Part shown: in pieces, positions 12,326-59,816 of the stretch
How the letters are laid out: each line of letters begins with the position of its first letter
How positions within the stretch are numbered: position 1 is the first letter of the stretch
DNA from: an uncultured Bacilli bacterium
Lineage (GTDB): Bacteria; Bacillota_I; Bacilli_A; RF39; UBA660
Reading direction: 5' to 3'
Assembly: GCA_934096265.1 (NCBI GenBank)
Contig: CAKOLI010000006.1
Location: 253-64,252, forward strand
DNA length: 64,000 bases
Made by a program: the position numbers and the translations under genes
The notes under the pieces: generated by a model
Databases searched by the model: none
Told to the model about the DNA's origin: nothing
Seen by the model: only the letters and a program-made list of their open reading frames with translations

Positions 12326-13213
12326 TTAATTTATCTTAATATTCATTACCTCTAAAATACGATTTAAATCCGCACTATTTTCAAAAAATATTTGCATTTT
12401 CTTACCATCTATTTTCACTTTAGTACCTAATATTTCTTTTAACTCATCTTCCACATATTGATAATCATTATTAGTACTTACCCTAGTAATAGGCACTTTC
12501 TTCTTAATATTATCCGTACTAGTTAAATTCTCCAAATCATGAACACTCATATTCTTAAGTACTATATCACTAGCTAGCCTCTTAATCTCCTCTTCATCAT
12601 CTAGCTTACTAAGAACCCTAGCATGCCCCATAGAAATCTTATCATCCAAAACCATATCTTGAACTTCCGAAGGAAGCCTCAAAAGACCAAGTGTATTAGT
12701 AATATGACTTCTACTCTTACCAAGCTTAAGTGCTAAATCTTCCTGCCTAATATGCAAACTATCAATAATACCTTTATAAGCCCAAGCAAGCTCTATCGCA
12801 GACAAATTCTCCCTTTGTAAATTTTCCAAAAGGGCTATTTCCCTCATCTCATCGTCACTAAAATCTTTAATAATCGCAGGAATAGTCTTCTTTCCCGCTA
12901 ATTTAGACGCTCTAAGCCTTCTTTCACCAGCTACTAAATAATAACCCTTAATAGTCTTCTTAACTATAATAGGTTGAAAAACACCATAATTACGAATAGA
13001 AGTAGCGAGTTCATCAAGAGCCTCTTGATCAAAATTCCTTCTTGGTTGATAAGGATTAACCTTAATATCATCCACATCAATCTGTACAATATCATCTTCA
13101 CGAGATGACTCAACTATATTACTCTCAAACGTATCAAAATCTATAGCTTCCCCATTAAATAATTGCTCTAACCCTCTACCAAGAGCCTTCTTTTTTTGTT
13201 CCATTTCTAACAA
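12326..13213 (-). CDS. spo0J: Chromosome partitioning protein ParB / Spo0J (parS-type specificity signature)
   Basis: GERRLRAS CTP-binding box. The HTH region LGKSRSHITNTLGLL...SMGHARVL resembles B. subtilis Spo0J LGKSRPHIANHLRLL...SAGHGRTL (recalled). It overlaps the end of soj. Confidence 0.9.
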   Translation of the reverse strand: MLEMEQKKKALGRGLEQLFNGEAIDFDTFESNIVESSREDDIVQIDVDDIKVNPYQPRRNFDQEALDELATSIRNYGVFQPIIVKKTIKGYYLVAGERRLRASKLAGKKTIPAIIKDFSDDEMREIALLENLQRENLSAIELAWAYKGIIDSLHIRQEDLALKLGKSRSHITNTLGLLRLPSEVQDMVLDDKISMGHARVLSKLDDEEEIKRLASDIVLKNMSVHDLENLTSTDNIKKKVPITRVSTNNDYQYVEDELKEILGTKVKIDGKKMQIFFENSADLNRILEVMNIKIN

Positions 13214-13991
13214 TAACCTCCTTTGCTAAATTAAGATATGCCAAAGTACCCTTACTAGTAGGGTCATATGCGGCAATAGGTTTACCATGACTAGGAGCCT
13301 CAGATAACCTAACCAACCTTGGAATAATCGTATTATAAACCCTCTCTTTAAAAAACTCCCTAATATTCTCTACAACCTCTAAACCTAAATTAGTTCTTGA
13401 ATAAAGCATAGTTAGTAAAACACCCTCAATCTCTAAATTAGGATTAATCTTCTTCTTCGCAAGCATTATCGTATTCATAAGTTGCATAATACCCTCTAAC
13501 GCAAAAAACTCACATTGAACAGGTATAATAACAGAATCAGAAGCCGCCAAAGCATTAGTAGTAAGTATTCCAAGTGAAGGAGGACAATCCAAAATCACAT
13601 AATCGTAATTATCCTTAACAAGCAAAATACCTTTCTTTAACTGACCATTCTTATCAAAAACTTGACCCTGATTAACAGCATTCCTCTCCTTATTCATGAG
13701 TTCAATATCTACCCCAGCCAAATTAATGTAAGCAGGTATCAAACTCAAATTCTTATATTTAGTTTTAATAATTGCCTTATCAATAGGAGACTTATCAGTA
13801 AGAACTTCATATATACTATCTCTTACCTCCCCCTTATTTATCCCCACCCCAGTAGTAGCATTACCTTGAGGATCCAAATCAACAAGCAAAACCTTCTTAT
13901 TTAATATCCCTAAAGAAGCAGCTAAATTAATACTAGTAGTAGTCTTACCTACGCCCCCTTTTTGATTTACCATTGCAATTACTTTTCCCAT
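13176..13991 (-). CDS. soj: ParA-family ATPase Soj
   Basis: MGKVIAMVNQKGGVGKTTT deviant Walker A. ATG at 13991 is preceded by GAAGGTG; the track start at 14060 is an extension. Confidence 0.92.
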   Translation of the reverse strand: MGKVIAMVNQKGGVGKTTTSINLAASLGILNKKVLLVDLDPQGNATTGVGINKGEVRDSIYEVLTDKSPIDKAIIKTKYKNLSLIPAYINLAGVDIELMNKERNAVNQGQVFDKNGQLKKGILLVKDNYDYVILDCPPSLGILTTNALAASDSVIIPVQCEFFALEGIMQLMNTIMLAKKKINPNLEIEGVLLTMLYSRTNLGLEVVENIREFFKERVYNTIIPRLVRLSEAPSHGKPIAAYDPTSKGTLAYLNLAKEVIVRNGTKKEGSW

Positions 13992-14109
13992 CGTTACACC
14001 TTCAATTCTTGTATATCTATTGTAACAAATTTTTATAAAAAAGAAAACACCTTTTATCAAAATATAAAATTATTTTAAATACATGCTATAATATTAATAA
14101 GGTGATAAC

Positions 14110-39050: not shown

Positions 39051-40790
39051 CTACTTATATTCTATTATATCACTACCAACAATATTAATTAAGTCATTAA
39101 TATCATTATTTACATTTTTTTGCACTAATTCATCACTAGAATTTATACTATCGTCAACTTGTAACTCATCAATATATTTATATTGTATATTAGATTTTTT
39201 ATTTTTAACAAAGTTATTTTTTTCAACAAGCCACTCATTCTCGTTAAGTCCAATAACCAAGTAATTTTTATTTAAAACTTTTTTCAACAAACTACTAACA
39301 TCATCAGTACACTGATTCAATCTATCAGTAACGGAAATATTATTACCCACAATTATTATGTTATTAGAACCAGCTGCAACTGGTGTAGAGTCTTGTAAAA
39401 CACCTGCTATTACACCAAGATCATCATTCAATACATAATCAGCAATATTACTCCATTTTGCTTTTACAGCCGCCAACTCTTCCTTATTAGCAGTGGCAAA
39501 GGTATTATTAATTCTAATTTTTTTAATATCGTCTGATAAAGAGTTACTTCTTTCTACATTTAAAGCATTTGTATCATTATTAGCTACAAAATTATTTCCC
39601 GGGAAATAATTTGTATTATACTTTACTTTGGGAAATAATTTTATTTCCCGAGTTTCATTCTCACTATTTTGGGAAATATTTTTATTTCCCAAATCTTCAT
39701 CTTTCAAATCATTATTTAATTTCGATGACATTTTAATCAAAAAGACTTGAATCATAATTTTTGGATAAGAAGTATTTTTAATATTAAATGACAATTGATT
39801 TGCAGAGTCAATAAACATATACAAAAATTCTTCATTTACAAAATTTTTTAATTCTTTCAATTTTTCATTTTTATAGTTTTCCACAGGCAAGTTAGGAGCA
39901 ACAATACTTATTAACAAATCTTTAGCAACAGCAATCAATTCATCAACTATTCTAAGCATATTTTTGCCTTTAATATCACATGTATCAATAAAATTAACAA
40001 TTTCTAAAACATTATGATGATACATATTAGTAAACAAATTACAAATATCTGAAAAAGATATACTTCCATTAATCTCATACACATCATCTATAGTAACGAC
40101 TTCTCCTTTAGAAGAAATTAACTGGTCTAACATATTAATTGAATCACGCATACCACCATCTGAAAAAATTGCTATTTGTTTTAATAATTCTTCATCTATA
40201 TTTATACCTTCTAAATTAATAATTCTTTTTAAGTTTTCCACAATGTTTTCCACAGATATACGACTAAAATTAAATTTTTGACATCTTGATAAAATAGTAG
40301 CTGGTATTTTTTGTTCTTCAGTAGTAGCTAAAATAAATATTACATGTCTAGGTGGTTCTTCAAGAGTTTTCAACAATGCATTAAATGCACCTATTGAAAG
40401 CATATGTACCTCATCTATAATATAAACTTTATATTTTGATATTGAAGGAACAAGATTAATTTTATCTCTAATTTCCCTTATTTCATCAACTCCATTATTA
40501 GATGCAGCATCAATCTCAATAATATCGTCATTACAATTATTTGCAATACTTATACAACTTTCACATTTTCCACAGGGTTCTCCGTTAATTGGATTTAAAC
40601 AATTAACCATTTTGGCTATTAATTTTGCTGTTGTTGTTTTACCTGTACCACGCGGACCACAAAACAAATAAGCATGAGTAATTTTATTATTAATAATAGC
40701 ATTTTGGATAGTTTCCACAATCATATTTTGACCTGCAATTTCACTAAACTTTTTAGGTCTATATTTTCTATACAAAGCTAAGTATTCCAC
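39051..40790 (-). CDS. dnaX: DNA polymerase III gamma/tau subunit
   Basis: GPRGTGKTT Walker A, zinc module CGKCESC, DEVHML and SRCQ motifs. GTG start is preceded by AGGAGGTG. Asn-rich variable C-terminal half. Confidence 0.95.
   Translation of the reverse strand: MEYLALYRKYRPKKFSEIAGQNMIVETIQNAIINNKITHAYLFCGPRGTGKTTTAKLIAKMVNCLNPINGEPCGKCESCISIANNCNDDIIEIDAASNNGVDEIREIRDKINLVPSISKYKVYIIDEVHMLSIGAFNALLKTLEEPPRHVIFILATTEEQKIPATILSRCQKFNFSRISVENIVENLKRIINLEGINIDEELLKQIAIFSDGGMRDSINMLDQLISSKGEVVTIDDVYEINGSISFSDICNLFTNMYHHNVLEIVNFIDTCDIKGKNMLRIVDELIAVAKDLLISIVAPNLPVENYKNEKLKELKNFVNEEFLYMFIDSANQLSFNIKNTSYPKIMIQVFLIKMSSKLNNDLKDEDLGNKNISQNSENETREIKLFPKVKYNTNYFPGNNFVANNDTNALNVERSNSLSDDIKKIRINNTFATANKEELAAVKAKWSNIADYVLNDDLGVIAGVLQDSTPVAAGSNNIIIVGNNISVTDRLNQCTDDVSSLLKKVLNKNYLVIGLNENEWLVEKNNFVKNKKSNIQYKYIDELQVDDSINSSDELVQKNVNNDINDLINIVGSDIIEYK
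39592..39690. promoter_or_regulatory. Cluster of Noc-binding-site (NBS) sequences inside the dnaX coding sequence
   Basis: Exact TATTTCCCGGGAAATA at 39593-39608. Everted half-site pairs GGGAAATAATTTTATTTCCC at 39630-39649 and GGGAAATATTTTTATTTCCC at 39671-39690. Confidence 0.6.
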
Positions 40791-40823: not shown

Positions 40824-40851
40824 TTAAAGAAAAAAGGCATATCATTGCCTT
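40824..40851 (-). terminator. Weak hairpin plus T-run between tadA and dnaX
   Basis: Minus strand AAGGCA-ATGATA-TGCCTT followed by TTTTCTTT. A TATAAT-containing segment precedes the dnaX RBS. Confidence 0.3.
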
Positions 40852-41303
40852 CATTGCCTTTTTTCTTTAAAAAAATCACTCAATATCTTAACATATTTTT
40901 CATTATGCACAGGGCCAATCACCTCTACTCCTGCATCTTCTAATATTTCTTTGTATTTATAATTTTTATCATTAATAATTCCAAAAACAACCTTAGATAT
41001 ACGAGCTTCAATTATAACACCTATACACATCAAACAAGGAAAAACTGTAACATACAGTATAGAACCATTAATTCGCCAATCTCCTATAAGTTCGCACATA
41101 GAACAAATTGCATTAATTTCTGCATGTCTTAAAACCAACTTGGTATTATATTTATCATTATATCCACAAGTAACTTTATTTTTAAAAACTAAAACTGAAC
41201 CAATAGGTACATCATCATTTTCATATGCTTTTTGAGCCATTAAAAAAGCTAAATCTAAATATTTTTCATCATAACTATTACTTTTTTTTATAGTGCAACT
41301 CAC
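40851..41303 (-). CDS. tadA: tRNA-specific adenosine deaminase
   Basis: HAEINAI and PCLMC zinc-binding motifs. GTG start. Confidence 0.92.
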   Translation of the reverse strand: MSCTIKKSNSYDEKYLDLAFLMAQKAYENDDVPIGSVLVFKNKVTCGYNDKYNTKLVLRHAEINAICSMCELIGDWRINGSILYVTVFPCLMCIGVIIEARISKVVFGIINDKNYKYKEILEDAGVEVIGPVHNEKYVKILSDFFKEKRQ

Positions 41304-41324
41304 TCAATCTTCAACTCCTAAAAA

Positions 41325-41403
41325 AAATAGTGCACATATTAAGAGGCTAGTTAAGCTGCTATTTTCCAATCCTGACTTGTTACTAGCATTAATATTGCAC
41401 TAC
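41325..41403 (-). ncRNA. ffs: Short (4.5S-type) signal recognition particle RNA
   Basis: Minus strand AGTGCAATATTAATGCTAGTAACAAGTCAGGATTGGAAAATAGCAGCTTAACTAGCCTCTTAATATGTGCACT folds as one long hairpin. Its apex GTCAGG-ATT-GGAA-AAT-AGCAGC matches the conserved domain IV GUCAGGUCCGGAAGGAAGCAGC. It is followed by ATTTTTTTT. In B. subtilis scr lies in the same neighbourhood, between tadA and dnaX. Confidence 0.65.
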
Positions 41404-41407
41404 TAAT

Positions 41408-41436
41408 AATATATACTAATTATTTAAAAATTTCAA
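41408..41436 (-). promoter_or_regulatory. SigA-type promoter for the SRP RNA
   Basis: Minus strand TTGAAA-N17-TATATT, with the -10 ending about 6 nt before the first base of the SRP helix. Confidence 0.5.
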
Positions 41437-41444
41437 CATTTTTT

Positions 41445-42992
41445 ATGTTCCACGTGGAACATGTATCATAAATTATTAAAAAATAATTAGACTTATAACA
41501 ACAATAATATTAAAATTAGACATTAGTAAGCTAAAAGTATATAATCAGTAATATTAAATATATTTAAATATTAAGTAATTATACAAATAAACGCAATTCT
41601 ATGTTCCACGTGGAACATAGAATTCATATTATATTCTATAATAATAATAATTAGTACAAAAACAATCATTAAACAGTAAATTATCTCTATCGTAAGCATA
41701 CAAGTATCTGCATTTTTATTAATGCTATTAATATATAAACAACGTAATTAATTATTTTTTTAGTTAGCATTACATTTTAATTAAAGTTATATATTCTATG
41801 TTCCACGTGGAACATAAAATATGCATTGAAAATTGCAAACTATTACTCATAATTATATTATTAACAATAATTAAACTTAAGTTTTAATTATTTAATGAGA
41901 AAATTATTTAACTAATAATAAATTAATATAATATGTAGTATTCATTGTATAGTAAAAAATATACCAAAATTTAATTTTAGCATAGTAAAATCATAATTAA
42001 GTATAAAATTAATATATATTTAAATCTCAACATTTATAATATAGATAATGTTCCACGTGGAACATGGCATATTTAATTATGTAACTAATTTAGCTAATAA
42101 AAAAAATAACAATTGCAATTAAATATAAGTAAAATTATATATAAATAATAATAATTAGTATAAAAATAATTATTAAACAGTAAATTTTCTTCATCGTAGA
42201 CATATAAATATCAGCATTTTTGTTAATGCTATTAATATATAAACAACATAATTAATAATTTATAACTTGCATTACATTTTAATTAAAGCTATGTGTTTTA
42301 TGTTCCACGTGGAACATAAAATATGCATTGAAAATTGCAAAATACTACACATAATTATATTAATTTATTTAAAACGTAAAACACCAATTATATAGTAAAA
42401 AACATACCAAAATTTAATTTTAGTATAGTAAAATCATAACTAAGTATAAAATTAATATATATTTTAATCTCAACATTCATAATATAGATAATGTTCCACG
42501 TGGAACATAGAATATGCATTAAAAATTACAAACTATCACACATAATAATATTTATTAACAATAATTAAACTTAAGTTTTTATTATTTAATGAGAAAATTA
42601 ATTAACTAATAATAAATTAATATAATGTGTAGTATACATTGTATAGTAAAAAACATACCAAAATTTAATTTTAGCATAGTAAAATACATAACTAAGTACA
42701 AAATTTACATATATATTTAAATTTAAATATTTATAATACCCATGTTCCACGTGGAACATAAAATACATGTTATAGCAATCTATTTTTATAATAGAAATTT
42801 AAAATATTTATATTTAAATTTAATTTCAATAAAATTATATGTATTAAAACTTTATATTATAAATAACAGGCTACAAAATCTATTTATTTATAATATTTAA
42901 ATATTAAGTAATAAACACATATCATTTAATTAAAAACTAATTATATAATTAATAATCACTTATTATAATACTTCATGTTCCACGTGGAACAT
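41445..42992. repeat. Array of eight identical 18-bp palindromes ATGTTCCACGTGGAACAT (parS-like) embedded in long AT-rich repeat units
   Basis: Copies at 41445-41462, 41601-41618, 41798-41815, 42048-42065, 42300-42317, 42491-42508, 42742-42759 and 42975-42992. The core TGTTCCACGTGGAACA differs at one position from TGTTNCACGTGAAACA. No ORF of 60 aa or more lies between 41304 and 43011. Confidence 0.9.
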
Positions 42993-43011
42993 GAAGTAAA
43001 AAAAGAGAATA

Positions 43012-45465
43012 CTATTCACTAATATTCTCATTTTGCGATTCGTCATTCAAAATCTTATCCACAGTTGCTACAGAAGAAACAGATTGTTTATCTCTTAAAT
43101 TAATTAGTTTAACACCTTGGGTGACACGACTTAATTTTGAAATCTGAGCTATATCAAGTCTAATAACTATACCTTCATTTGTAACTATAATCAAGTCTTT
43201 ATCATCAGACACCAATTTAAATGCAATTAACGATCCATTCTTTTCAGTTAAATTAATTGTTTTAACACCCTTGCCACCACGGTTAGTAATTCTATACTCA
43301 TTTATATCAGTTTTTTTACCATAGCCTTTTTCAGTTACTACAAGTACATTTTGATTATCTGAAGCAATTTCCATACCAATTAAATCTCCACCAGATAAAT
43401 TAATACCTTTAACGCCAGATGCACTTCTACCCATTACTCTAATTGCCTTTTCGTTAAATCTTACCATACGACCATTAGAAGCAGCCATTAATATATCATT
43501 ATCCCCTGTAGTTTTCTTAGCGGATACTAACTCATCATTATCACGTAAAGTTATAAACTTCTTACCATTATTCCTAATATTATCAAATTCAGAAATAGCA
43601 GTACGTTTAATAATTCCACATTTAGTAGCAAATACTAAATTTTTGTAAATATCATTATTTTCAATTTTCAACAACTCTTTAACTTTCTCATCCTTTTCTA
43701 AATTTAATAAATTAACAATAGGAATACCTTTAGATTGACGACCAAATTCTGGAATCTCATATCCCTTTAATCTATATACCTTCCCTTTATTAGTAAAGAA
43801 CAATATATAATCATGCGAATTAGAATTAATAATGTTTTCCACAAAGTCTTCTTCGTTAGTAGACATACCTTTAATTCCCACTCCCCCACGATTTTGTGTT
43901 TTATAAGTATCCACAGGTAGTCTCTTAATATAGCCTTTATTAGTTAAAGTAATAGCTACATTTTCTTCAGGAATTAAAGACTCATCATCAATATAATCAA
44001 TAGCGGTCATATCGATTCTTGTTCTTCTTTCATCAGCGAACTTTTGTTTGATTTCTAATAACTCATCCTTAATTATTTTCAAAATTCTTTCATTACTTGC
44101 TAAAATAGCTCTCAACTCTTCTATTAATTTAAGTAATTCACCTAATTCTTTTTCTATTTTATCTCTTTCTAATCCTGTTAGCCTACGCAACTTCATTTCT
44201 AAAATAGCTTCCGATTGAATATTATCAAGACCGAATTTAGAAGATAATTGATTTTTAGCCTCCTCATCACTCTTAGAAGATTTAATTATTTTTATAACTT
44301 CATCTATATTATCAAGAGCAATCTTTAAACCTTCTAATATATGAACTCTTTTCTCTGCCTTATCTAAGTCAAATTTTGTTCTTCTAATAATAACTTCCCT
44401 TTGATAATCAATATACTTAGAAATTATATCCTTTAAACCTAACGTTTTAGGAACAATTCCGTCCAACATTAGAAAAATTATTCCATAATTGACTTGAAAT
44501 TGTGTATGCTTGTACAATTTATTTAACACTACTTGAGGATTAGCATCCTTTTTTAAAGTAATTGTAATTTTAATACCATCTTTTAAATCAGTATGATAAT
44601 CAGAAATACCTTCAATTACCTTACTATGAACCAAATCTGCTACCTTATTTTTCAATTCAGCAGTATTTACACCATAAGGGACTTCATCAATTACAATATA
44701 GTGCTTACCATTCTTTTCCTCAATATTAGCCTTACTTCTAATAACAATAGTACCACGACCAGTTTCATAAGCTTGCCTAATGCCTTTATTACCTAATATA
44801 ATTCCACCAGTAGGAAAATCAGGACCTTTAATATAATTCATTAATCCGGCTGTATCAATATCTTGATTATCAATATATGCAACACATCCATCAATTACTT
44901 CACCTAAATTATGAGGAGGAATATTTGTTGCCATACCAACAGCAATACCCATCGTACCATTAACTAATATATTAGGAAACCTTGAAGGCAAAACCAATGG
45001 TTCTTTTTCTAAACCATCAAAGTTATCCACAAAATCTACTGTATTTTTATTAATATCTTTAAGTAATTCTAACGAAATTTTAGACAACCTTGATTCAGTA
45101 TAACGCATTGCAGCTGCCCCATACCCTTCAATATTACCAAAATTACCATGACCATCTATTAAAGTATAACGATAGCTAAAATCTTGTGCCATTCTAACCA
45201 TTGCTTCATATATAGACGAATCACCATGAGGATGATACTTACCAATAACATCCCCAACTATTCTAGCACTTTTTTTATGCATTTTATCTGGAGTATAACC
45301 AGATTCATACATCGAATATAATATTCTTCTATGCACAGGCTTTAACCCATCTCTTAAATCAGGCAAAGCACGTGCTTTTATAACACTAAGAGAATACTCC
45401 ATAAAAGATGTACTAATTTCATTAACAATATTATTCTCTTCTAGTCTATCTCTACTATGATCCAT
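43012..45465 (-). CDS. gyrA: DNA gyrase subunit A
   Basis: [15 protein letters not shown] and the catalytic-Tyr region AAMRYTE. ATG at 45465 is preceded by GAGGTGAG. Confidence 0.97.
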
Positions 45466-45478
45466 TATTCTCACCTCA

Positions 45479-48500
<3,022 letters not shown>

Positions 48501-48676: not shown

Positions 48677-49162
48677 TTAAACACCTTTAGTATACAAATT
48701 TAACTCTATTATTTTCTTTTTACAAATTAATAAATAATTTCTTAATAACATGCACTTATTAATTTGATTTTTCATCGAATAAAAAGATTTATTTATTAAA
48801 TATTTTTTACTATTAATAAAATAAATAGCTGTATGATTATTTGGAGCTCTTCTAATATATTTAACTTGACTAAAATTAATCCACACACATTCCTTATTTC
48901 TATAAGAGTGCGTAGGAAAAATTATAACATCATTTGTAATATCAATTACAATAGGTAATTTATCATCAGTACACAATACCTTTTTTATCAAATCCTTAGT
49001 AAAAAAATTAGAATTATATGTTTTAATTGATGCATTAATAACTTTACTCACACAACTACGAATATATATTTTATCATTATTATGAAATATCACAGTATGT
49101 TTAAAATTAATATCTCTATGAAACATTATAGTATCATTATTAATTATATAAAAATCCTGCAT
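48677..49162 (-). CDS. comK: ComK-family protein
   Basis: YIINNDTIMF..., KLPIVIDITNDVIIFPTHSYRNKECVWINFSQV and LINKSFYSMKNQINKCMLLRNYL parallel B. subtilis ComK PPIMVDPSNQIFLFPTLSSTRPQCGWISHVHV...ISYNSFENQVYRTAWLRTKF (recalled). ATG at 49162 is preceded by GGAAAGGGGGG. Confidence 0.65.
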   Translation of the reverse strand: MQDFYIINNDTIMFHRDINFKHTVIFHNNDKIYIRSCVSKVINASIKTYNSNFFTKDLIKKVLCTDDKLPIVIDITNDVIIFPTHSYRNKECVWINFSQVKYIRRAPNNHTAIYFINSKKYLINKSFYSMKNQINKCMLLRNYLLICKKKIIELNLYTKGV

Positions 49163-49248
49163 AAACCCCCCTTTCCATATATAAAAAAAATATATATGCA
49201 CTTTATTTAAGCATATATATTTGTCGAAATTTGTAGAAAAATGTCGAA

Positions 49249-50364: not shown

Positions 50365-50526
50365 TATATTCCTTCTTTCTATTATTATATTTATATTGAT
50401 TATTATACTGTGGAAAATGTGGAAAACTCTCTTAACTCTTTGATTTATAAGGCTTTACTTGCTCAGTCTATGTGGAAAACTTGTAGATAATTTTAGCACT
50501 TATAAACCTAATTATGTGGATAACAT
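50365..50526. promoter_or_regulatory. dnaA-dnaN intergenic oriC module: DnaA boxes plus an AT-rich unwinding candidate
   Basis: TGTGGAAAA at 50409, 50418 and 50471. TGTAGATAA at 50482. Perfect TGTGGATAA at 50515 overlapping the dnaA stop. The pure A/T run 50381-50407 abuts the boxes on the dnaN side. Confidence 0.7.
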
Positions 50527-52299: not shown

Positions 52300-53721
52300 T
52301 TAATTTTTATTTATATTAATTATAATTTGATATTTATCAGCTAAATCAAGTTCAGTTACATTTACTTTATTATTACCATTACTAGCATTCTTAACAGTAT
52401 TACGAATTTCATTAACAATATTATTAAAGTCACTATTATTACTACTTTCAGTTACTTTCACACTTAAACTTGATAAACCATCACTATTAGTATCAATTTT
52501 TTCAATATTAACAGGTTTAATTTCATCATTAAACATATTACCATTATCGACATTTTTTGCACTTATTTGAGAAGTTAAATCATTAGTTGTAACAAATTCA
52601 TCATTCAAAGAAGGGAAAAACTTATTACCGTTCAAAGAAAATAAATTATTATTTGTATTATTATCATTACTAACATCTTTTGGTAAATCAGATTTTAATA
52701 AATCATCAAAATTAGGTAAATCTTTAGGTCTATTAATATCTTCTGCTACCTCTTTAATTTTATTAATATCAATAGCTTGAGTCTTATCTTCAATAACTGC
52801 TTCAGTATCATTAAATACATTAGATTTAGCATCAACAATATCCAATCCATTCAAGGCTTTTTGCATATTATCATTGATATCCATATCCATAACATTACTA
52901 TTACCAGTAGGATTATTATTTAAATTATTTAAGTTTATAACATCATTATTAACATTATTATCTCCAAAATTAGGTATTGATATATCATTATTAGGAGTAA
53001 CTACATTATTATTTTGAATATTATTACTAATATTAGTATTAAGTTCCTTTGACATATTAACATTAGATAAAGCATTATTAGAATTTAAAGAAATGTCTCC
53101 ATTATTATTAGCTTTAGCATTTAAAATATCTTTTATCAAATCATCAGTTTGTTTGACAGTTAATCTATCATTTATAATATTATTTAATATTTTAGATTGC
53201 TCATTAAAATCTTTTAATTGTAACAGACTTCTAGCATGTCTTTCGGATATTTTATTAGTAAGTAATGCTTGTTGTACATCTTCCCCTAAATTTAATAGTC
53301 TTAATTTATTTGCAACATTAGATTGACTTTTTCCCATTCTAATAGCAAGTTGATCTTGTGTAAGTTGCCCTAAGTCAAGTAATCTCTTATAAGATTTGGC
53401 TTCTTCTAACGCAGATAATTGTTTCCTTTGAATATTTTCCACTACTGCAACTTCTGCACTTTCTTTGTCATCTAATTCAGTAATAATCGCAGGAATCTCA
53501 CTAAGCCCTGCTTTAACAGCGGCTTTAAATCTTCTTTCACCTGCTATAATTTCATATTTATCTCCTATTTTTCTAAGAACCAATGGTTGTATAATACCAT
53601 GTTGCTTAATTGAAGCAGTTAATTCATTAAGCTCGTCTTCATTAAATGTTAAACGTGGTTGAAAACGATTAGGAATAACATCATCTATTTTAATATTTAA
53701 AATTTCTTTTCCTAAATTCAT
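52300..53721 (-). CDS. noc: ParB-family nucleoid occlusion protein Noc homologue with a roughly 230-aa Asn-rich C-terminal extension
   Basis: PNRFQPR and GERRFKAA boxes. HTH MGKSQSNVANKLRLL...SERHARSL matches B. subtilis Noc LGKGQSTIANKLRLL...TERHARAL (recalled) rather than Spo0J. Follows rsmG. ATG at 53721 is preceded by AAGGAGGATAAT; the track start is TTG at 53886. Confidence 0.8.
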   Translation of the reverse strand: MNLGKEILNIKIDDVIPNRFQPRLTFNEDELNELTASIKQHGIIQPLVLRKIGDKYEIIAGERRFKAAVKAGLSEIPAIITELDDKESAEVAVVENIQRKQLSALEEAKSYKRLLDLGQLTQDQLAIRMGKSQSNVANKLRLLNLGEDVQQALLTNKISERHARSLLQLKDFNEQSKILNNIINDRLTVKQTDDLIKDILNAKANNNGDISLNSNNALSNVNMSKELNTNISNNIQNNNVVTPNNDISIPNFGDNNVNNDVINLNNLNNNPTGNSNVMDMDINDNMQKALNGLDIVDAKSNVFNDTEAVIEDKTQAIDINKIKEVAEDINRPKDLPNFDDLLKSDLPKDVSNDNNTNNNLFSLNGNKFFPSLNDEFVTTNDLTSQISAKNVDNGNMFNDEIKPVNIEKIDTNSDGLSSLSVKVTESSNNSDFNNIVNEIRNTVKNASNGNNKVNVTELDLADKYQIIININKN

Positions 53722-53807
53722 ATTATCCTCCTTATTCTTTATACAATTATTATAATACACTATATTTGTCGAAAAAACAAGAAAAAAATAAATTTTAAAC
53801 ATTTTTT

Positions 53808-53913
53808 GGGAAATAATTTTATTTCCCAAGGTAAAATAAGGGTTTATATATATAAAAAATATTTCCCGGGAAATATTTTTACACAAAAAAATTGGGAAAT
53901 AAAATTATTTCCC
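53808..53913. promoter_or_regulatory. Cluster of NBS sequences in the rsmG-noc intergenic region
   Basis: Exact TATTTCCCGGGAAATA at 53860-53875. Everted pairs GGGAAATAATTTTATTTCCC at 53808-53827 and GGGAAATAAAATTATTTCCC at 53894-53913. Confidence 0.65.
53884..53913 (-). terminator. Possible rsmG terminator, coincident with one everted NBS-like palindrome
   Basis: Minus strand GGGAAATAA-TT-TTATTTCCC followed by AATTTTTTTGTGT, 13 nt after the rsmG stop. Confidence 0.4.
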
Positions 53914-53925
53914 AAACTAAATTCA

Positions 53926-54627
53926 TTATAATGGAGATTTTTTTATTTCTTTATACGCTCTTGGAAATTTATTATTTGTATTTCCTATTTTTTTAAATGA
54001 GATTAATAATCTCTCGCTATTTTCAATTGGTAGTAAAAATTCCAATCTTTTATCTTCCTTAAAATTCATTTTCTTTAAACAATTATCAAGATTGTTAAAT
54101 TCGTCCCCCGCTTTTGCTTTCATCGCGATAAAGTGCCCACCAACTTTTACAGAAGCACCAGATATTTCAAGTAACTGACTCATACCTGTCACTGCTCTTC
54201 CAGTTACTATATCAAACATTTCTCTATTATTTCTAGTAAATATTTCCGCTCTATCATTAACAACAACAACATTACATAAATTTAATTCATCCACAATAGC
54301 CTTCAAAAAATTACATCTTTTTCCTAAAGAATCTAACAAAGTAAGCTTAATATTTGGAAATATTATTTTTAAAGGAATACCAGGAAATCCCGCTCCTGTG
54401 CCAATATCACATACACTCTGCTTGTCAAAATCAATAATTTTACATATAGTTAAAGAGTCAAAAAAATGTTTTAAATATATAGCATCTTCATCAGTAATAG
54501 AAGTTAAATTAATCATTTTATTCCATTCTATTAACATATTAAAATATTTTTCAAACTGTTGTAACTGACAATCATTAATATCAATATTTAAATCTTTCAA
54601 ATGAGTAATAAAATCTTCTCTATTCAT
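53926..54627 (-). CDS. rsmG: 16S rRNA (guanine527-N7)-methyltransferase
   Basis: DIGTGAGFPGIPLKI SAM motif. Overlaps the mnmG end. Conserved mnmG-rsmG order. Confidence 0.93.
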   Translation of the reverse strand: MNREDFITHLKDLNIDINDCQLQQFEKYFNMLIEWNKMINLTSITDEDAIYLKHFFDSLTICKIIDFDKQSVCDIGTGAGFPGIPLKIIFPNIKLTLLDSLGKRCNFLKAIVDELNLCNVVVVNDRAEIFTRNNREMFDIVTGRAVTGMSQLLEISGASVKVGGHFIAMKAKAGDEFNNLDNCLKKMNFKEDKRLEFLLPIENSERLLISFKKIGNTNNKFPRAYKEIKKSPL

Positions 54628-56458
54628 TATAAAACCTCTTTAAATAAATAAGTAATATAGATATATCCGCGGGATTAACCCCACTAATTCTTAAAGCTTG
54701 ACCAATAGAACCAGGTCTAATTTTTTCTAGTTTAACTCTTGCCTCACTTGCTAAATTAGGAATTTTACTATAATCAATATCAGTAGGTATTAATTTTTCC
54801 TCATTCTTTAACATTTTTTGTGCTTCTTTATCTACTTTTTTAATATATCCATCATATTTAATTTGAATTTCTACTTCTTCCAATACTTCTTTATTAACAT
54901 TACATAAAAAATCATATTTCAAAGCCAAATCATCTATTTTAACACTAGGTATTTTTAAATAATCATATAAATTACTACCTATAGAACCTTTATCATTATT
55001 AATAACAATTTTAGTATTTTTAAGACGCTCTATCAAATTAGCAATTAAATTTTTCTTTAATAAAAATTTATTATACCTATCTTCATCAATTAAGCCAACC
55101 TTATAACCATATTCTCTTAATCTTAAGTCTGCGTTATCATGTCTAAGTAACAAACGATATTCAGCTCTAGAAGTAAGAAGTCTATAAGGGTCCATAATCC
55201 CTTTAGTAATCAAATCATCTATAAGTACACCAATATAAGCTTCATTTCTTTTTAAAACAAGAGGATCTTTATCTTTAAGTTTCAAAGATGCATTTATACC
55301 CGCGATTAAACCTTGACAAGCGGCTTCTTCATATCCACTTGTTCCATTAATTTGACCTGCCGTAAACAAATTATTAATTAATTTAGTTTCTAAACTAGGT
55401 TTTAATTGTAAAGGATTAATTGCATCATATTCAATCGCATATGCATATTTTAAAATAACAGCATTTTCTAATCCGGGTAAACTATGAACCATCTCTTCTT
55501 GAACATCTTTAGGCATACTTGTAGAAAAACCTTGTAAATAAATATCATCATAATATAAACTTTCTGGCTCTAAAAATAATTGATGCCTTTCCTTATCAGC
55601 GAATCTAACTACTTTATCTTCAATAGAAGGACAATATCTAGGACCAACACCTTTAATATCGTTTCTACCCCCATACATACTAGATTTATGCAAATTATTA
55701 TTAATAATTTCATGAGTTTTTTTAGTAGTATAAATTAAATGACATGGAACTTGATTGTGAACATCGTAAAAAGCCTCTACATCATGACTAAAAGTATACA
55801 GTTTATCATCTCCATATTCAACTTTCGTCTTTTCAAAATCAATAGAATCTCTTTTAATTCTAGGAGGTGTACCAGTTTTAAGTCTAATTATTTCAAATCC
55901 TAACTTACCCAAATTATCTGATAAGTGCATTGATGGTCTTTGAGAATTAGGACCACTACGAGTTCTTGTATCCCCAATCAAAATATCACTCTTTAAATAA
56001 GTACCAGTAGTTAAGATTACTGCCTTAGCCTTAATTTTGCCATATTTATCACAAATAACTCCGGTAACTGTCTTACCTTCAATAACCAAATCTTCAACTA
56101 AATCCTCAAGTAAAGTTAAATTATTACAGTTATTAAGAGTTTTCAACATCTCCTGTGGATAAGTTATTTTATCTGCCTGTGCCCTCAAACTTCTAACTGC
56201 AGGTCCTTTAGAAGAATTAAGCATTTTCATTTGTAGTAAAGTTTTATCTGCATTAATTCCCATTTCCCCACCTAAAGCATCAATTTCTCTAACAACTATT
56301 CCTTTTGCAGACCCACCAATAGAAGGATTACATGGCATAGTGGCAATATTATTTATATTACCTGTAATAAGTAAAGTTTTATTATTAGTTCTAGCACATG
56401 CTAACGCAGCTTCACATCCAGCATGACCACCACCTACGACAACAACATCATAATCCAT
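54620..56458 (-). CDS. mnmG: tRNA uridine 5-carboxymethylaminomethyl modification enzyme MnmG (GidA)
   Basis: MDYDVVVVGGGHAGCEAALA FAD motif. ATG at 56458 is preceded by GAGGTGA. Confidence 0.96.
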   Translation of the reverse strand: MDYDVVVVGGGHAGCEAALACARTNNKTLLITGNINNIATMPCNPSIGGSAKGIVVREIDALGGEMGINADKTLLQMKMLNSSKGPAVRSLRAQADKITYPQEMLKTLNNCNNLTLLEDLVEDLVIEGKTVTGVICDKYGKIKAKAVILTTGTYLKSDILIGDTRTRSGPNSQRPSMHLSDNLGKLGFEIIRLKTGTPPRIKRDSIDFEKTKVEYGDDKLYTFSHDVEAFYDVHNQVPCHLIYTTKKTHEIINNNLHKSSMYGGRNDIKGVGPRYCPSIEDKVVRFADKERHQLFLEPESLYYDDIYLQGFSTSMPKDVQEEMVHSLPGLENAVILKYAYAIEYDAINPLQLKPSLETKLINNLFTAGQINGTSGYEEAACQGLIAGINASLKLKDKDPLVLKRNEAYIGVLIDDLITKGIMDPYRLLTSRAEYRLLLRHDNADLRLREYGYKVGLIDEDRYNKFLLKKNLIANLIERLKNTKIVINNDKGSIGSNLYDYLKIPSVKIDDLALKYDFLCNVNKEVLEEVEIQIKYDGYIKKVDKEAQKMLKNEEKLIPTDIDYSKIPNLASEARVKLEKIRPGSIGQALRISGVNPADISILLIYLKRFYNE

Positions 56459-56579
56459 ACAATTCACCTCACAAATTTCTTCATTATTATATATCATTTT
56501 TTTAATTAATACAATAAAAAAAGAATACATATATGCAATTTACTAAATTACCATCAATATTCTTTTATGTAAAATAAAG

Positions 56580-57929
56580 CTATTTTCCTAAACAAAATTT
56601 ACTAAATAAATTATCTAAAAATTCCTCACTATATGTCTCACCTATAATCTCACCAAGTATTTCCCAAGATGATCTTACATCAAATTCTACCATATCAATA
56701 GGAAGATCATTATCTATATTATTAATCGCAGTATTAATCTTATCTAAAGCTTTCTTCATAAAACCAATATTCTTAATATTAGTTAATATACAATCATTAT
56801 TTAAATTAATTTCTCCTAAATTAAATAAATTCTTAATCTTATCTTTAATTAAATCAATTCCAATATCTTCTTTAACACTAATCTCAATATAATCATCAAG
56901 CATATTCTTATCAAGCTTATTATCTAAATCAATTTTATTTACAACAATTATTCTCTTCATATCTTTAGTCTTATCAAGTAACTCTAAATCATCTTTATCT
57001 ATATAATCATTATTATTCAAAATCAAAATAATTAAATCACTATTATCTATAATAGATAAACTCTTAGATACTCCAATTTTTTCTACAACATCATCAGTAT
57101 TCCTAATACCAGCTGTATCAATTACATTTAAAATAATTCCATCTAAATTAATAGAACCCTCTACAATATCTCTAGTAGTTCCAGGAATATCAGTAACAAT
57201 AGCTTTATCTTCTTCTAATAAAGCATTAAGTAAAGAAGATTTTCCGACATTAGGCCTTCCAATAATCCCTACTTTAATGGAAGAAGTAAGAACCATTCCA
57301 TTCTCACTATTTTTAATAATAGTTTTAAGCTTATCAGCAAATAAATTCAAACTACATTTAAATTTTTCATTAGTAATTTCCTCTATATCAGTATATTCTG
57401 GATAATCAATATTAACCTCAATATTACCTAAAATAGTAACTAACTCATCACGTAAACTTCTAATTAAAGATGAAGTCTTCCCACTAAGTCCATTAATAAA
57501 AACTTTTCTACCAGCATCAGATTTAGTTTCAATTAAATTATTAATACTATCTGCTTGAATTAAGTCAATTCTACCATTCAAAAAAGCCCTCTTAGTAAAC
57601 TCACCAGCTAAAGCTAACCTAGCACCATTCTTAATAAGAACTTCCAATATCTTATTAGTGGTAGTTATCCCTCCATGAGCATTAATTTCTACAACATCTT
57701 CCCTAGTATAAGTCTTAGGTTTAAGCATTATAGAAACTAACACTTCATCAATAATATCTTCTCCATCAACTATATAACCATAATAAATAGTATGACTCTT
57801 AATACTATCTAAATTCTTATGTTTAAATACCTTTTTAAGTATAGTAACAGCCTCATTACCACTCATTCTAATAATCGAAATAGCTCCTTCACCAAGTGCG
57901 GTAGAAATAGCTACTATAGTATCATCCAT
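56580..57929 (-). CDS. mnmE: tRNA modification GTPase MnmE (TrmE)
   Basis: DTIVAISTALGEGAISIIR, GRPNVGKSSLLNAL, DTAGIR, and the C-terminal FCLGK. Confidence 0.96.
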   Translation of the reverse strand: MDDTIVAISTALGEGAISIIRMSGNEAVTILKKVFKHKNLDSIKSHTIYYGYIVDGEDIIDEVLVSIMLKPKTYTREDVVEINAHGGITTTNKILEVLIKNGARLALAGEFTKRAFLNGRIDLIQADSINNLIETKSDAGRKVFINGLSGKTSSLIRSLRDELVTILGNIEVNIDYPEYTDIEEITNEKFKCSLNLFADKLKTIIKNSENGMVLTSSIKVGIIGRPNVGKSSLLNALLEEDKAIVTDIPGTTRDIVEGSINLDGIILNVIDTAGIRNTDDVVEKIGVSKSLSIIDNSDLIILILNNNDYIDKDDLELLDKTKDMKRIIVVNKIDLDNKLDKNMLDDYIEISVKEDIGIDLIKDKIKNLFNLGEINLNNDCILTNIKNIGFMKKALDKINTAINNIDNDLPIDMVEFDVRSSWEILGEIIGETYSEEFLDNLFSKFCLGK

Positions 57930-57977
57930 ATGTAAATCCTCCTATATAAAGAAAACACAGAAATATAATCTGTATTT

Positions 57978-58580
57978 TTACTTTAATTTAATAACAACAC
58001 ATCTATTAGGCTCAACCCCAGTACTCTCTGTATATACATATTTATCTCTAGCAAGAGTTTCATGAACTATCCTTCTTTCATAAGAATTCATACTATCCAT
58101 CTTAACATCAACTCCTGTACTAGCAACTTCTCTAGCAGTTTGCCTAGCTAAATATTGAATACCTTTAATCCTTTTTTCTTTATAATTCTCAACATCTAAT
58201 AAAAATGGTACCTTTTCTCCAGTTTCATTATATAAAAATTGCTTCATAAGTAATTGTAAAGCCATCAAAGTTTTCCCATTCTTACCTATTAATATATTAT
58301 TATTATCAGAAAAAATCTTAATAACTACTACATCATCCCTCTTCTTCACTTCCATATTAATACCAATATTCATAAGTGAAGCAATATCCCTAAGAGCATC
58401 CTTTATATAATCAACCACACCATCTATTTTAGTAACCTTAATTACTACTTTCTTCTTAACAATCCCTCTTACTTCTTCTACAACTTGAATAAATAAATTA
58501 TCCCTAGATGTATCTAAATCATTAATAGCTTTTTGAATAGCATCTTCTTTATTTTGAGCTTCATAGTTATATGATGTCAT
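57978..58580 (-). CDS. jag: Jag/KhpB RNA-binding protein (KH plus R3H)
   Basis: C-terminal R3H MNSYERRIVHETLA. Follows yidC. Confidence 0.9.
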   Translation of the reverse strand: MTSYNYEAQNKEDAIQKAINDLDTSRDNLFIQVVEEVRGIVKKKVVIKVTKIDGVVDYIKDALRDIASLMNIGINMEVKKRDDVVVIKIFSDNNNILIGKNGKTLMALQLLMKQFLYNETGEKVPFLLDVENYKEKRIKGIQYLARQTAREVASTGVDVKMDSMNSYERRIVHETLARDKYVYTESTGVEPNRCVVIKLK

Positions 58581-59499
58581 TATTCTTTACCTTCTTTCTT
58601 TTTACTAATAAATTTTGTAAAATAGTAAACACACTACCAGTAATCCAATATATACCAATAGCCGCGGATAAAGTAAATGAGGCAAAAGCAATAAATCCAA
58701 GCATTATATATAAAGTAGTCTTCATCTGAGAAGCTGCAGGTCCAGATTGATCATTCATAGTATTTTTAAATGAAAAATAAGTAGTACCAATAATTAAAAT
58801 AATTAAAATTACATATATATAATTTCCATTACTAATACCTATCCAAGCACTAGTACCCATTTGCATACCTAAAAAGTTATTTTCAAATATCGCAGGTACT
58901 CTATTAATCGCTTCTAAGAAAGCAAACAATAAAGGTAACTGTATAAATGCAAGTAAGCAACCAGACATAGGATTAATATTATATTTCTTATAAATAATCA
59001 TCATCTCTTGAGCTTTTTTCATTTGATCTTCTTGAGATGTTTTATCACGATACTTCTTTTCTAGCTTATCTAACTCAGGCTTAGCCACCTTCATATTTTC
59101 AGATTGTACAGCAGTCTTCTTAGTAACAGGAATAAGTATTGTTCTAATAAGTAAAGTAGCAAGCACCACTGCAAAACCATAATTTTTAACTAAATTACCT
59201 ATTTGAATAATAAGCCAAGCTAAAGGCTTAACAAATATACTTGTCCATAATCCTTCATATCCTCCATCAGTAATAGACATAGAAGAACAACTAGGTAACT
59301 TATCCAAATCAACATCATGTGCCTTATATATATCAATAACCTTTTCATTAGTAGGTTTACATAATATATTCTTTGTCAAAGCCTGCCCAGTAAGTTCATT
59401 TTGTACAACCTTACCATCATCACCCTTCAACTGCTTTGTACATCCCGTTAAAAGTAACAACGTACAAAAAAGTCCAACAACAAATTTTTTCTTCATCAC
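58567..59499 (-). CDS. yidC: Membrane protein insertase YidC/SpoIIIJ (lipoprotein type)
   Basis: Lipobox LLLTGC, a conserved polytopic core and a basic C-terminal tail. Confidence 0.93.
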   Translation of the reverse strand: MMKKKFVVGLFCTLLLLTGCTKQLKGDDGKVVQNELTGQALTKNILCKPTNEKVIDIYKAHDVDLDKLPSCSSMSITDGGYEGLWTSIFVKPLAWLIIQIGNLVKNYGFAVVLATLLIRTILIPVTKKTAVQSENMKVAKPELDKLEKKYRDKTSQEDQMKKAQEMMIIYKKYNINPMSGCLLAFIQLPLLFAFLEAINRVPAIFENNFLGMQMGTSAWIGISNGNYIYVILIILIIGTTYFSFKNTMNDQSGPAASQMKTTLYIMLGFIAFASFTLSAAIGIYWITGSVFTILQNLLVKRKKVKNNDII

Positions 59500-59816
59500 A
59501 AAATCTCCTTCATTAAATTAATTAGTTCTCTCTCCATATCACTATAAGATAAATCAAGAACACTCCCTTTAACTATTATAACATATTGTTTGTTATTTTG
59601 AAGATTTTTTTTATACTTATCTATAATATTTTTAATTTGTCTCTTAATTTTATTTCTAACAACAGCATTACCCGTTTTCTTAGGAACCGAAATACCAAAT
59701 AACATAATATCTGCTCCATTATAAAAAACAGAAAAATACTTATTCCTTACAACTTTTCTCTTATCTATAATCTTCTTAAAATCTTCATTTTTCTTAATAA
59801 TTTCTCTTTTCTTCAT
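59496..59816 (-). CDS. rnpA: Ribonuclease P protein component
   Basis: 106 aa, basic. GISVPKKTGNAVVRNKIKRQIK RNR motif. Downstream of rpmH. Confidence 0.93.
   Translation of the reverse strand: MKKREIIKKNEDFKKIIDKRKVVRNKYFSVFYNGADIMLFGISVPKKTGNAVVRNKIKRQIKNIIDKYKKNLQNNKQYVIIVKGSVLDLSYSDMERELINLMKEIL

Follow-up and report, generated by a model that had tools for sequence, protein, structure and literature searches.

Here we describe an array of eight identical parS sites in a stretch of 64,000 nucleotides from an uncultured bacterium (contig CAKOLI010000006.1; the whole stretch is referred to as the window). The array occupies 1.55 kb between gyrA and tadA, near the predicted replication origin, and it is very likely that the boxes are bound by the Spo0J-type ParB encoded in the same window and form the chromosomal centromere. 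The feature is real, and a function is very probable. The source organism belongs to the Bacilli; it is an uncultured gut bacterium with a low content of guanine plus cytosine (GC) and has Clostridium sp. CAG:762 as a relative. Chromosomal parS centromere clusters are of an already known kind, and the identity of the boxes as parS will not surprise a specialist. What is new is the tandem units resembling those of plasmid F sopC, the fixed address away from parAB, the satellite-like turnover of the units, and the presence, in relatives, of Noc-binding sites (NBS) arrayed together with parS.

The 18-mer ATGTTCCACGTGGAACAT occurs in eight exact copies with no mismatch in the 64-kb window. The starts (Table 1) and the spacings between successive boxes (156, 197, 250, 252, 191, 251, and 233 bp), first listed in an earlier note on this DNA, are reproduced by an exact scan. 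Dinucleotide-preserving shuffles contain 0.02 matches to the 18-mer on average, and none of 100 shuffles reaches eight. All eight boxes fit the degenerate parS pattern TGTTNCACGTGNAACA at each specified position and are, by their sequence, canonical parS. With up to two mismatches allowed, the pattern finds only these eight boxes in the 64 kb, and no further parS-like site is present in the window even at two to three mismatches.

The boxes are placed in DNA of 17% GC (14% without the boxes), which is by far the longest non-coding stretch between listed open reading frames (ORFs) in the window. As previously stated, the tract between gyrA and tadA contains no ORF of 60 or more residues. The description of this tract as gene-free is correct for positions 41412–43011. 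It is not correct for the whole gyrA–tadA interval, because a gene for the small signal recognition particle (SRP) RNA lies at its edge, 34 bp from parS site 1 and outside the centromere itself. The SRP RNA is the only credible Rfam match when the window is searched at gathering thresholds and the tract at E values up to 1; the sole other match in the tract, MIR6288, reaches 20 bits (E = 0.92), well short of its gathering score of 74. A promoter scan of the tract returns 27 matches against 26.7 expected and is uninformative because the DNA is 14% GC.

Around the boxes, diverged direct repeats of about 100–130 nt (families D1–D6, 63–96% identical) recur at distances of about 190–250 bp and about 500 bp. 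Tandem Repeats Finder reports short AT-rich micro-repeats only and no regular array in the window. The 45 nt on each side of the eight boxes are on average 45% identical, near the chance level for AT-rich DNA; the box positions are identical across the eight copies in 144 of 144 cases.

The protein that is predicted to read the array is encoded in the window, together with its ParA partner. The parB ORF comprises 295 codons, and translation probably starts at MEQKKK to give a protein of 292 residues (12326–13204); the start of the gene is overlapped by parA. ParB aligns best with B. subtilis Spo0J (6SDK, 9.7e-56) and contains the GERRLRA cytidine triphosphate (CTP) motif and the N-terminal LGRGL motif. 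Residues at positions 173, 179, 184, and 201 (Caulobacter numbering) set the specificity for parS versus NBS (Jalal et al. 2020; PMC7383237). In alignments to 6SDK and 4UMK, ParB has R, T, R, and G at these positions, and its specificity residues are, on this alignment, those of the parS type. The same features recur among 120 homologs with 72–100% identity: positions 173/201 are R/G in 111 and R/A in 8, GERRLRA is kept in 119, and LGRGL in 118. ParB homologs of the clade defined below (292–298 residues) are 72–79% identical where GyrA is 72–77% identical, and a parS-type ParB is kept wherever the clade is checkable. Both genes are thus present as assigned earlier, as Soj and a Spo0J-type ParB.

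The two genes are not next to the array. In the window, parAB is 28 kb from it; in a sister species, parAB and the array are on one contig, about 29 kb apart (L329, L336; ERZ27258800:k141_118038). In two species, five loci were scanned for parS with up to two mismatches, and none lies closer than 10 kb to parAB. Therefore, the centromere is uncoupled from the partition operon in this clade. The parAB genes (12326–14060 in the window; L335–L339) are detached from noc/rsmG and lie beside tilS–ftsH and a cold-shock gene, a context that is kept in two further species.

We scanned 185,579 species genomes with GyrA and obtained 80 loci. The 61 loci with GyrA at least 64% identical are treated as the clade, and the other 19 as outgroups. 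The closest relative is Clostridium sp. CAG:762 (GyrA 88% identical), and the rest of the clade consists of uncultured gut Bacilli in records labelled Tenericutes, Mollicutes, or Erysipelotrichaceae. With at most one mismatch, the clade has 250 parS sites within 3.5 kb after gyrA, one in the 3′ end of gyrA, none in 497 kb upstream, and none further downstream. The outgroups have six sites in total: two within 3.5 kb after gyrA, one upstream, and three further downstream. In 49 clade loci, the available sequence extends 1.5 kb or more beyond gyrA; 47 of these have two or more sites, and the count has a median of 4 and a maximum of 12.

The gene order of the window (dnaA-dnaN-recF-gyrB-gyrA-[array]-tadA-dnaX) is chromosomal, and the synteny dnaA-dnaN-(comK)-recF-gyrB-gyrA-[array]-tadA-dnaX is kept in the clade. 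In all seven further loci found through DnaA homologs, the array is at the same position. A comparison of the gyrA–tadA interval among relatives, as the earlier note had proposed, thus finds the array at the same address clade-wide with only the box conserved. Over the remaining 62 kb of the window and about 950 kb–1 Mb of flanking sequence from relatives, no parS lies outside the spacer. Within the sequence covered, the 18-mer is confined to the tract and does not behave as the generic dispersed repeat that the same note had named as a way to refute its reading.

At this spacer, the closest relatives use the other canonical variants (TGTTTCACGTGAAACA at 111 sites, TGTTCCACGTGAAACA at 77, and TGTTCCACGTGGAACA at 36), and only the known degenerate parS position therefore varies. 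Over 271 sites, each box position is 93–100% conserved except positions 5 and 12, which alternate between T and C and between A and G, respectively; in this alignment, the alternation is exactly the known parS degeneracy. The base flanking the 16-mer is A (T on the other side) in 93% of the sites, compared with a background of about 38%. This conservation indicates that the 18-mer, as originally proposed, is the real unit in the clade.

The units that carry the boxes differ between species. Array periods are 35 bp (L052), 37 bp (L009, L085), 38 bp (L033), 45 bp (L049), 53 bp (L019), 61 bp (L008), 127 bp (L030–L032, L083), and about 250 bp (L084 and the window). The copy number ranges from 2 to 12 between species, with up to 11 copies in relatives with units of 35–61 bp (L019, L008, L033, L052). 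When the boxes are masked, BLAST of the window spacers against all related loci gives no meaningful cross-species match. Helical phasing does not provide a rule either, as no multiple of 10.5 bp is common to the periods, which run from 35 to 252 bp. Arrays are internally homogeneous in their parS variant: the pairwise identity is 0.74, compared with 0.37 after permutation, and none of 5000 permutations attained 0.74.

Turnover is visible between strains as well. Human-gut metagenomes (Hadza and others) include contigs that encode a TadA identical to that of the window; where such contigs cover the whole interval, they have six to eight exact boxes. In one of them (L004), the tract is identical to that of the window. 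Strain differences are deletions of exactly one unit, of 197 bp and 233 bp, and one C-to-T change at the degenerate position 5, which leaves the box a consensus parS. Elsewhere in the clade, L330 has three and L331 has eight 60-bp units with identical DnaA. Many contigs of the window species (L006, L007, and others) start or end inside the array, where repeats break short-read assemblies. As assemblies can collapse or break at repeats, the strain copy numbers from short reads are lower bounds. The arrays are not a short-read artefact, because that of L032 comes from a long-read assembly (metaFlye). The pattern is that of concerted evolution by unequal exchange, with selection apparently acting on the protein-binding box only.

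The position of the array relative to the origin agrees with the earlier description. The array is 7.5–9 kb from dnaA and 7.4 kb from the nearer of two DnaA-box clusters, which is in the dnaA–dnaN spacer. The two clusters are predicted to constitute the usual bipartite Firmicute oriC.

A mechanism can be proposed on the basis of ParB from B. subtilis and Caulobacter (PMC7053999, PMC8367383, PMC7333895). Each 16-bp palindrome TGTTCCACGTGGAACA, effectively 18 bp in the clade, would serve as a nucleation site for a ParB dimer. ParB bound to parS would take up CTP, close as a clamp, and slide to the flanks, leaving its box open to another dimer. With eight boxes in 1.55 kb of untranscribed DNA, a dense ParB domain would be loaded and would extend as far as the predicted oriC, about 7.4 kb away. 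Through this domain, ParA/Soj would segregate the origin region, and the array would probably also be where SMC is loaded. We infer ParB binding, CTP-dependent spreading, and the action of ParA and SMC from analogy with these systems; any benefit of multiplicity is likewise surmise. In its turnover, the array behaves like a satellite: whole units are added, removed, and homogenised by unequal recombination or slippage, the box alone is held by selection, and copy number floats.

Chromosomal parS sites had been described in the earlier note as single sites scattered along the chromosome. This is wrong, since clusters close to the origin are documented in several bacteria. Caulobacter has 5–7 parS sites about 8 kb from ori (PMC5815017), and in M. 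xanthus 24 lie upstream of parAB (PMC3778016). In P. aeruginosa, the four sites nearest oriC form a cluster (PMC4368675), and S. coelicolor and L. innocua have about 22 (PMC7333895). In transposon sequencing (Tn-seq) of Caulobacter, extra parS is tolerated only near the native cluster, and one of the two hot spots for tolerated insertions is recF–gyrB (PMC5815017). The array shares with chromosomal ParABS clusters (B. subtilis, Caulobacter parS1–7, M. xanthus, P. aeruginosa parS1–4) the consensus of the 16-bp palindrome, the ParB type (CTP motif, HTH, and R173/G201) with a ParA partner, the origin-proximal placement of several sites close together, and the expected mechanism. It differs from them in that identical sites lie in tandem direct repeats in a dedicated non-coding spacer, that the array is fixed at gyrA–tadA clade-wide and not in or beside parAB, and that period and spacer turn over between species and are homogenised within. 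We found no description of tandem parS arrays after gyrA, or of parS in these Mollicutes-like Bacilli, in a search in which the site layout of L. innocua was not compared.

The density of sites can be set against a scan of metagenome and viral collections for the 18-mer, in which at least 120 metagenome loci match; the 120 listed are sampled by motif presence and come from many environments. Among these, 72 have at most one parS in any 2 kb, 38 have two, 7 have three, 1 has four, and 2 have five; a second parS is thus present within 2 kb in 40%. Both five-site loci listed are gyrA-[array]-tadA loci of this clade, and no listed locus from outside the clade has more than four sites per 2 kb. The listed three-site clusters in high-GC bacteria are located between rsmG/mnmG and parA, the classical place. 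Among the 120 listed, no viral contig has more than two sites, and there is therefore no sign of phage-borne arrays. Eight sites in 1.55 kb, as in the window, are at the extreme of this distribution.

In plasmid F, sopC is made of a 43-bp unit repeated 12 times in tandem, and SopB binds a 16-bp inverted repeat in every unit. The arrays of the clade resemble it in architecture, with head-to-tail units in non-coding DNA that each have one short palindromic site for a ParB-family protein. The comparison with sopC had been made before and is apt, more so for the relatives with regular 35–61-bp units (L019, L008, L033, L052), which are structurally very close to sopC. The 35–61-bp and 127-bp units of relatives are regular, head-to-tail, and clearly sopC-like, whereas the units in the window are long (156–252 bp), irregular, and 63–96% identical. 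In contrast to sopC, the array is chromosomal, is not beside the partition operon, and has the universal chromosomal parS as its box. In the alpha-satellite centromere, the CENP-B box is carried by tandem repeats that turn over rapidly between species and are homogenised within. The likeness to such satellite centromeres is in evolutionary dynamics only; the proteins, the scale, and the segregation mechanism are unrelated.

The window encodes a second ParB-family protein, overlooked in the earlier note, that is similar to Noc. Its ParB_N and HTH_ParB domains are intact, and it aligns best with Noc structures (7NFU, 1.3e-61). Positions 173/179/184/201 are Q/K/N/R, which is the NBS type. The protein has an Asn-rich low-complexity C-terminal extension of about 265 residues and is about twice as long as B. 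subtilis Noc. Long versions of noc (435–513 residues) are also found after rsmG in relatives. With its start codon assigned tentatively, the N-terminus of the window protein (MFKIYFFLVFS...) may form a membrane helix.

Two perfect copies of the NBS ATTTCCCGGGAAAT are present in the window, in a genome of 28% GC, and sister-species loci (L328, L329) share both positions (39594 and 53861). The pair may reflect autoregulation of noc and a conserved intragenic site. No NBS with up to two mismatches is present in 41412–43011. As the two paralogs have separate motifs, the array is assigned to ParB.

In relatives, NBS are concentrated in the same spacer that carries parS. The first 2.5 kb after gyrA contain 127 NBS (at most one mismatch) in 127 kb, compared with 28 in 970 kb elsewhere, a 35-fold enrichment, and at least two NBS are present within 2.5 kb after gyrA in 25 of the 61 loci. 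Arrays of perfect NBS (ATTTCCCGGGAAAT) within these 2.5 kb are found in L032 (12436–14100), L020, L021, L026, L029–L031, L037, L083, L084, and L334. The NBS period equals the parS period in L029–L032, L083, and apparently L084; the 127-bp units of L032 visibly pair a parS with an NBS (aATGTTTCACGTGGAACATa and tATTTCCCGGGAAATa, a single copy of each per unit). The NBS of B. subtilis and S. aureus are spread across the origin-proximal chromosome without forming arrays (PMC8429893, PMC5540599). We found no literature report of composite units of parS and NBS. Like these two species, the window has a Noc-type paralog and perfect NBS, and NBS in relatives share the spacer and the repeat unit with parS. 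The window differs from the known system in that its array is without NBS and its paralog is about twice as long, with an Asn-rich tail. Because no NBS is present in the window array, the co-arrayed NBS of relatives leave its reading unchanged.

These results suggest that the gyrA–tadA spacer is a general landing pad for ParB-family clamps in the clade. We tentatively extend this to a possibility that we consider somewhat doubtful, in which the spacer would be a fast-evolving, satellite-like centromere and a shared loading platform for ParB and Noc-like CTP clamps. ParB and the Noc-like paralog would be loaded side by side near the origin, segregation would be coupled to membrane tethering or to division or replication control at one locus, and the species of the window would belong to a lineage that retained the parS half only.

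Several observations weigh against the centromere reading. One relative (L010) has no parS in 2.1 kb, and another (L048) has a single site. The window is 64 kb of a genome, and further parS sites elsewhere are possible. The GC skew is negative throughout the window, at about −0.3 to −0.5, with no change of sign at the DnaA-box clusters, so the position of oriC is given by DnaA boxes and synteny alone. The count of sites varies from 2 to 12 between species and from six to eight (or three to eight) between strains, which means that the exact copy number is unconstrained and speaks for one or a few sites being enough, with multiplicity perhaps neutral. A rival reading follows from this point, namely that the boxes are real parS and that the array adds no function beyond that of a single site, its copy number being a neutral by-product of slippage or recombination. 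We take this as a substantial possibility, if not the one that we favour. Besides the variable count, some relatives have only 0–2 sites, one parS is often enough in other species, P. aeruginosa among them (PMC4368675, PMC7333895), and the restriction of tolerated extra parS to the vicinity of the native cluster in Caulobacter could alone explain clustering (PMC5815017). However, 47 of 49 species loci keep at least two sites with a median of 4, arrays have been rebuilt from unrelated units in different lineages, and none of the eight boxes in the window is damaged, although decay would be expected if the extra copies were neutral. In addition, loci outside the clade do not exceed four sites per 2 kb among the 120 metagenome matches listed. 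Given the weight of this rival, the odds that multiplicity brings an adaptive benefit are at best even. The earlier proposal of a dedicated ParB/SMC loading platform stands for the dedicated non-coding array near the predicted origin; its other part, an adaptive multiplicity, is surmise in view of the same variation in count.

Other readings assign the palindromes to something other than ParB. They could be bound by the Noc-like paralog, so that the tract would be an array for nucleoid occlusion or membrane tethering. The gene of the paralog is about 9 kb away, nearer than parB, its ParB_N and HTH_ParB domains are intact, and genuine NBS are arrayed in this spacer in 25 of 61 relatives. Nevertheless, the pattern Q173/K179/R201 is the NBS type that abolishes the preference for parS in the work of Jalal et al. 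(PMC7383237), the two perfect ATTTCCCGGGAAAT sites are elsewhere in the window with none in the tract at up to two mismatches, and NBS and parS are separate motifs within the unit in relatives. We reject this very improbable reading on the specificity residues and the separate NBS motif. The earlier concern that another regulator owns the palindrome is likewise not borne out within the window, as the only other ParB-family protein has NBS-type residues and a motif of its own. Equally improbable is that the palindromes act as RNA or DNA hairpins, either terminators or insulators between gyrA and SRP RNA–tadA–dnaX, or that they are a repeat similar to repetitive extragenic palindromes (REP) or miniature inverted-repeat transposable elements (MITE). 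A terminator scan does find four matches of a hairpin plus a T-run against 0.1 expected, all centred on boxes, and site 8 is 20 bp after the gyrA stop codon. But a terminator needs a stem and not a fixed sequence, and the box is held to the parS consensus in dozens of species while its flanks are free. Moreover, a T-run follows some copies only, three of eight boxes score as terminator-like, and eight successive terminators are unneeded. Some boxes may double as terminators. A REP- or MITE-like repeat is contradicted by the confinement of the motif, which is found neither in the remaining 62 kb of the window nor in about 1 Mb of relatives' flanks. The least probable of the readings takes the tract as part of the replication origin or as a DnaA-titrating locus similar to datA or DARS. 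The tract is close to dnaA, TGTTCCACG resembles a degenerate DnaA box, and the half-site TGTTCCAC matches TTATCCACA at 6 of 9 positions. However, 41300–43020 contains no DnaA box with at most one mismatch, clusters of five and four boxes flank dnaA instead, and the variants in relatives follow the degeneracy of parS and not that of DnaA boxes. This reading is rejected because no TTATCCACA box with at most one mismatch is present in the tract. Centromeric parS, very probably bound by ParB, is the reading that we retain.

Table 1 Features of the array and of its surroundings in the window.
Feature	Position	Strand	Remark
parS site 1 (ATGTTCCACGTGGAACAT)	41445..41462	.	exact match; abuts SRP RNA promoter-like element
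parS site 2	41601..41618	.	exact match; palindrome here extends to 30 bp (AATTCTATGTTCCACGTGGAACATAGAATT)
parS site 3	41798..41815	.	exact match
parS site 4	42048..42065	.	exact match
parS site 5	42300..42317	.	exact match
parS site 6	42491..42508	.	exact match
parS site 7	42742..42759	.	exact match
parS site 8	42975..42992	.	exact match; 20 bp downstream of gyrA stop codon
AT-rich non-coding scaffold of array	41412..43011	.	1.6 kb, gene-free part of interval
ParB (Spo0J-type), predicted array reader	12326..13213	-	ParB_N + HTH_ParB domains
ParA/Soj ATPase, ParB partner	13176..14060	-	AAA_31 + CbiA domains, ParA-family matches
Perfect NBS ATTTCCCGGGAAAT inside dnaX	39594..39607	.	position kept in sister species, apparently in many relatives
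tadA	40851-41303	-	other border of interval
Small SRP RNA gene, left bound of array	41313..41411	-	Rfam RF00169, 59.5 bits vs gathering score 40
gyrA	43012-45486	-	NCBIfam gyrA 1150 bits
DnaA-box cluster (5 boxes, at most 1 mismatch), dnaA–dnaN spacer	50409..50523	.	predicted oriC part
dnaA	50512-51966		
DnaA-box cluster (4 boxes, at most 1 mismatch), upstream of dnaA	52090..52214	.	predicted oriC part
Long Noc-like ParB paralog	52300..53886	-	528 residues; between rsmG and dnaA
Perfect NBS ATTTCCCGGGAAAT	53861..53874	.	just upstream of likely noc start; position kept in sister species

The best promoter-like element for the SRP RNA gene (TTGAAA-17-TATATT, 41436–41408, minus strand) is 9 bp from parS site 1. 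Therefore, ParB loading and SRP RNA transcription may interfere. On the other side of dnaA, the window and its sister species have the block rnpA-yidC-jag-mnmE-mnmG-rsmG-noc (52300–59816) in the orientation of dnaA. Most relatives, like B. subtilis, have rnpA-yidC-jag-mnmE divergent from dnaA. A local inversion beside oriC in the window and the sister species is likely, and it would probably explain part of the missing skew switch. The plus-strand genes at 60–64 kb have no positive skew, and the inversion accounts for only part.

A ComK-family gene (48677–49201, minus strand) lies between dnaN and recF, a position that is kept in much of the clade. B. subtilis has a small S4-like gene between dnaN and recF. 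A 1088-residue protein with VWA and MucBP domains (14853–18119, minus strand), likely a surface adhesin, adjoins the parAB region and is also present in the sister species.

This clade contains dozens of species in which the centromere has kept its chromosomal address, its box, and its ParB, while its units have been rebuilt in other lengths and other numbers. Here parS is uncoupled from parAB, whereas the high-GC bacteria sampled have small clusters beside parA. If functional, the NBS that are arrayed together with parS in relatives would be a previously undescribed arrangement of Noc sites. The clade offers an approachable case for a stated open question, what drives the clustering and the number of parS sites. 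Gain and loss of whole units are visible at the strain level, which makes comparative and population genomics feasible. If the reading as a shared loading platform is true, the birth, homogenisation, and loss of units would make the clade a natural experiment on the clustering and multiplication of parS.

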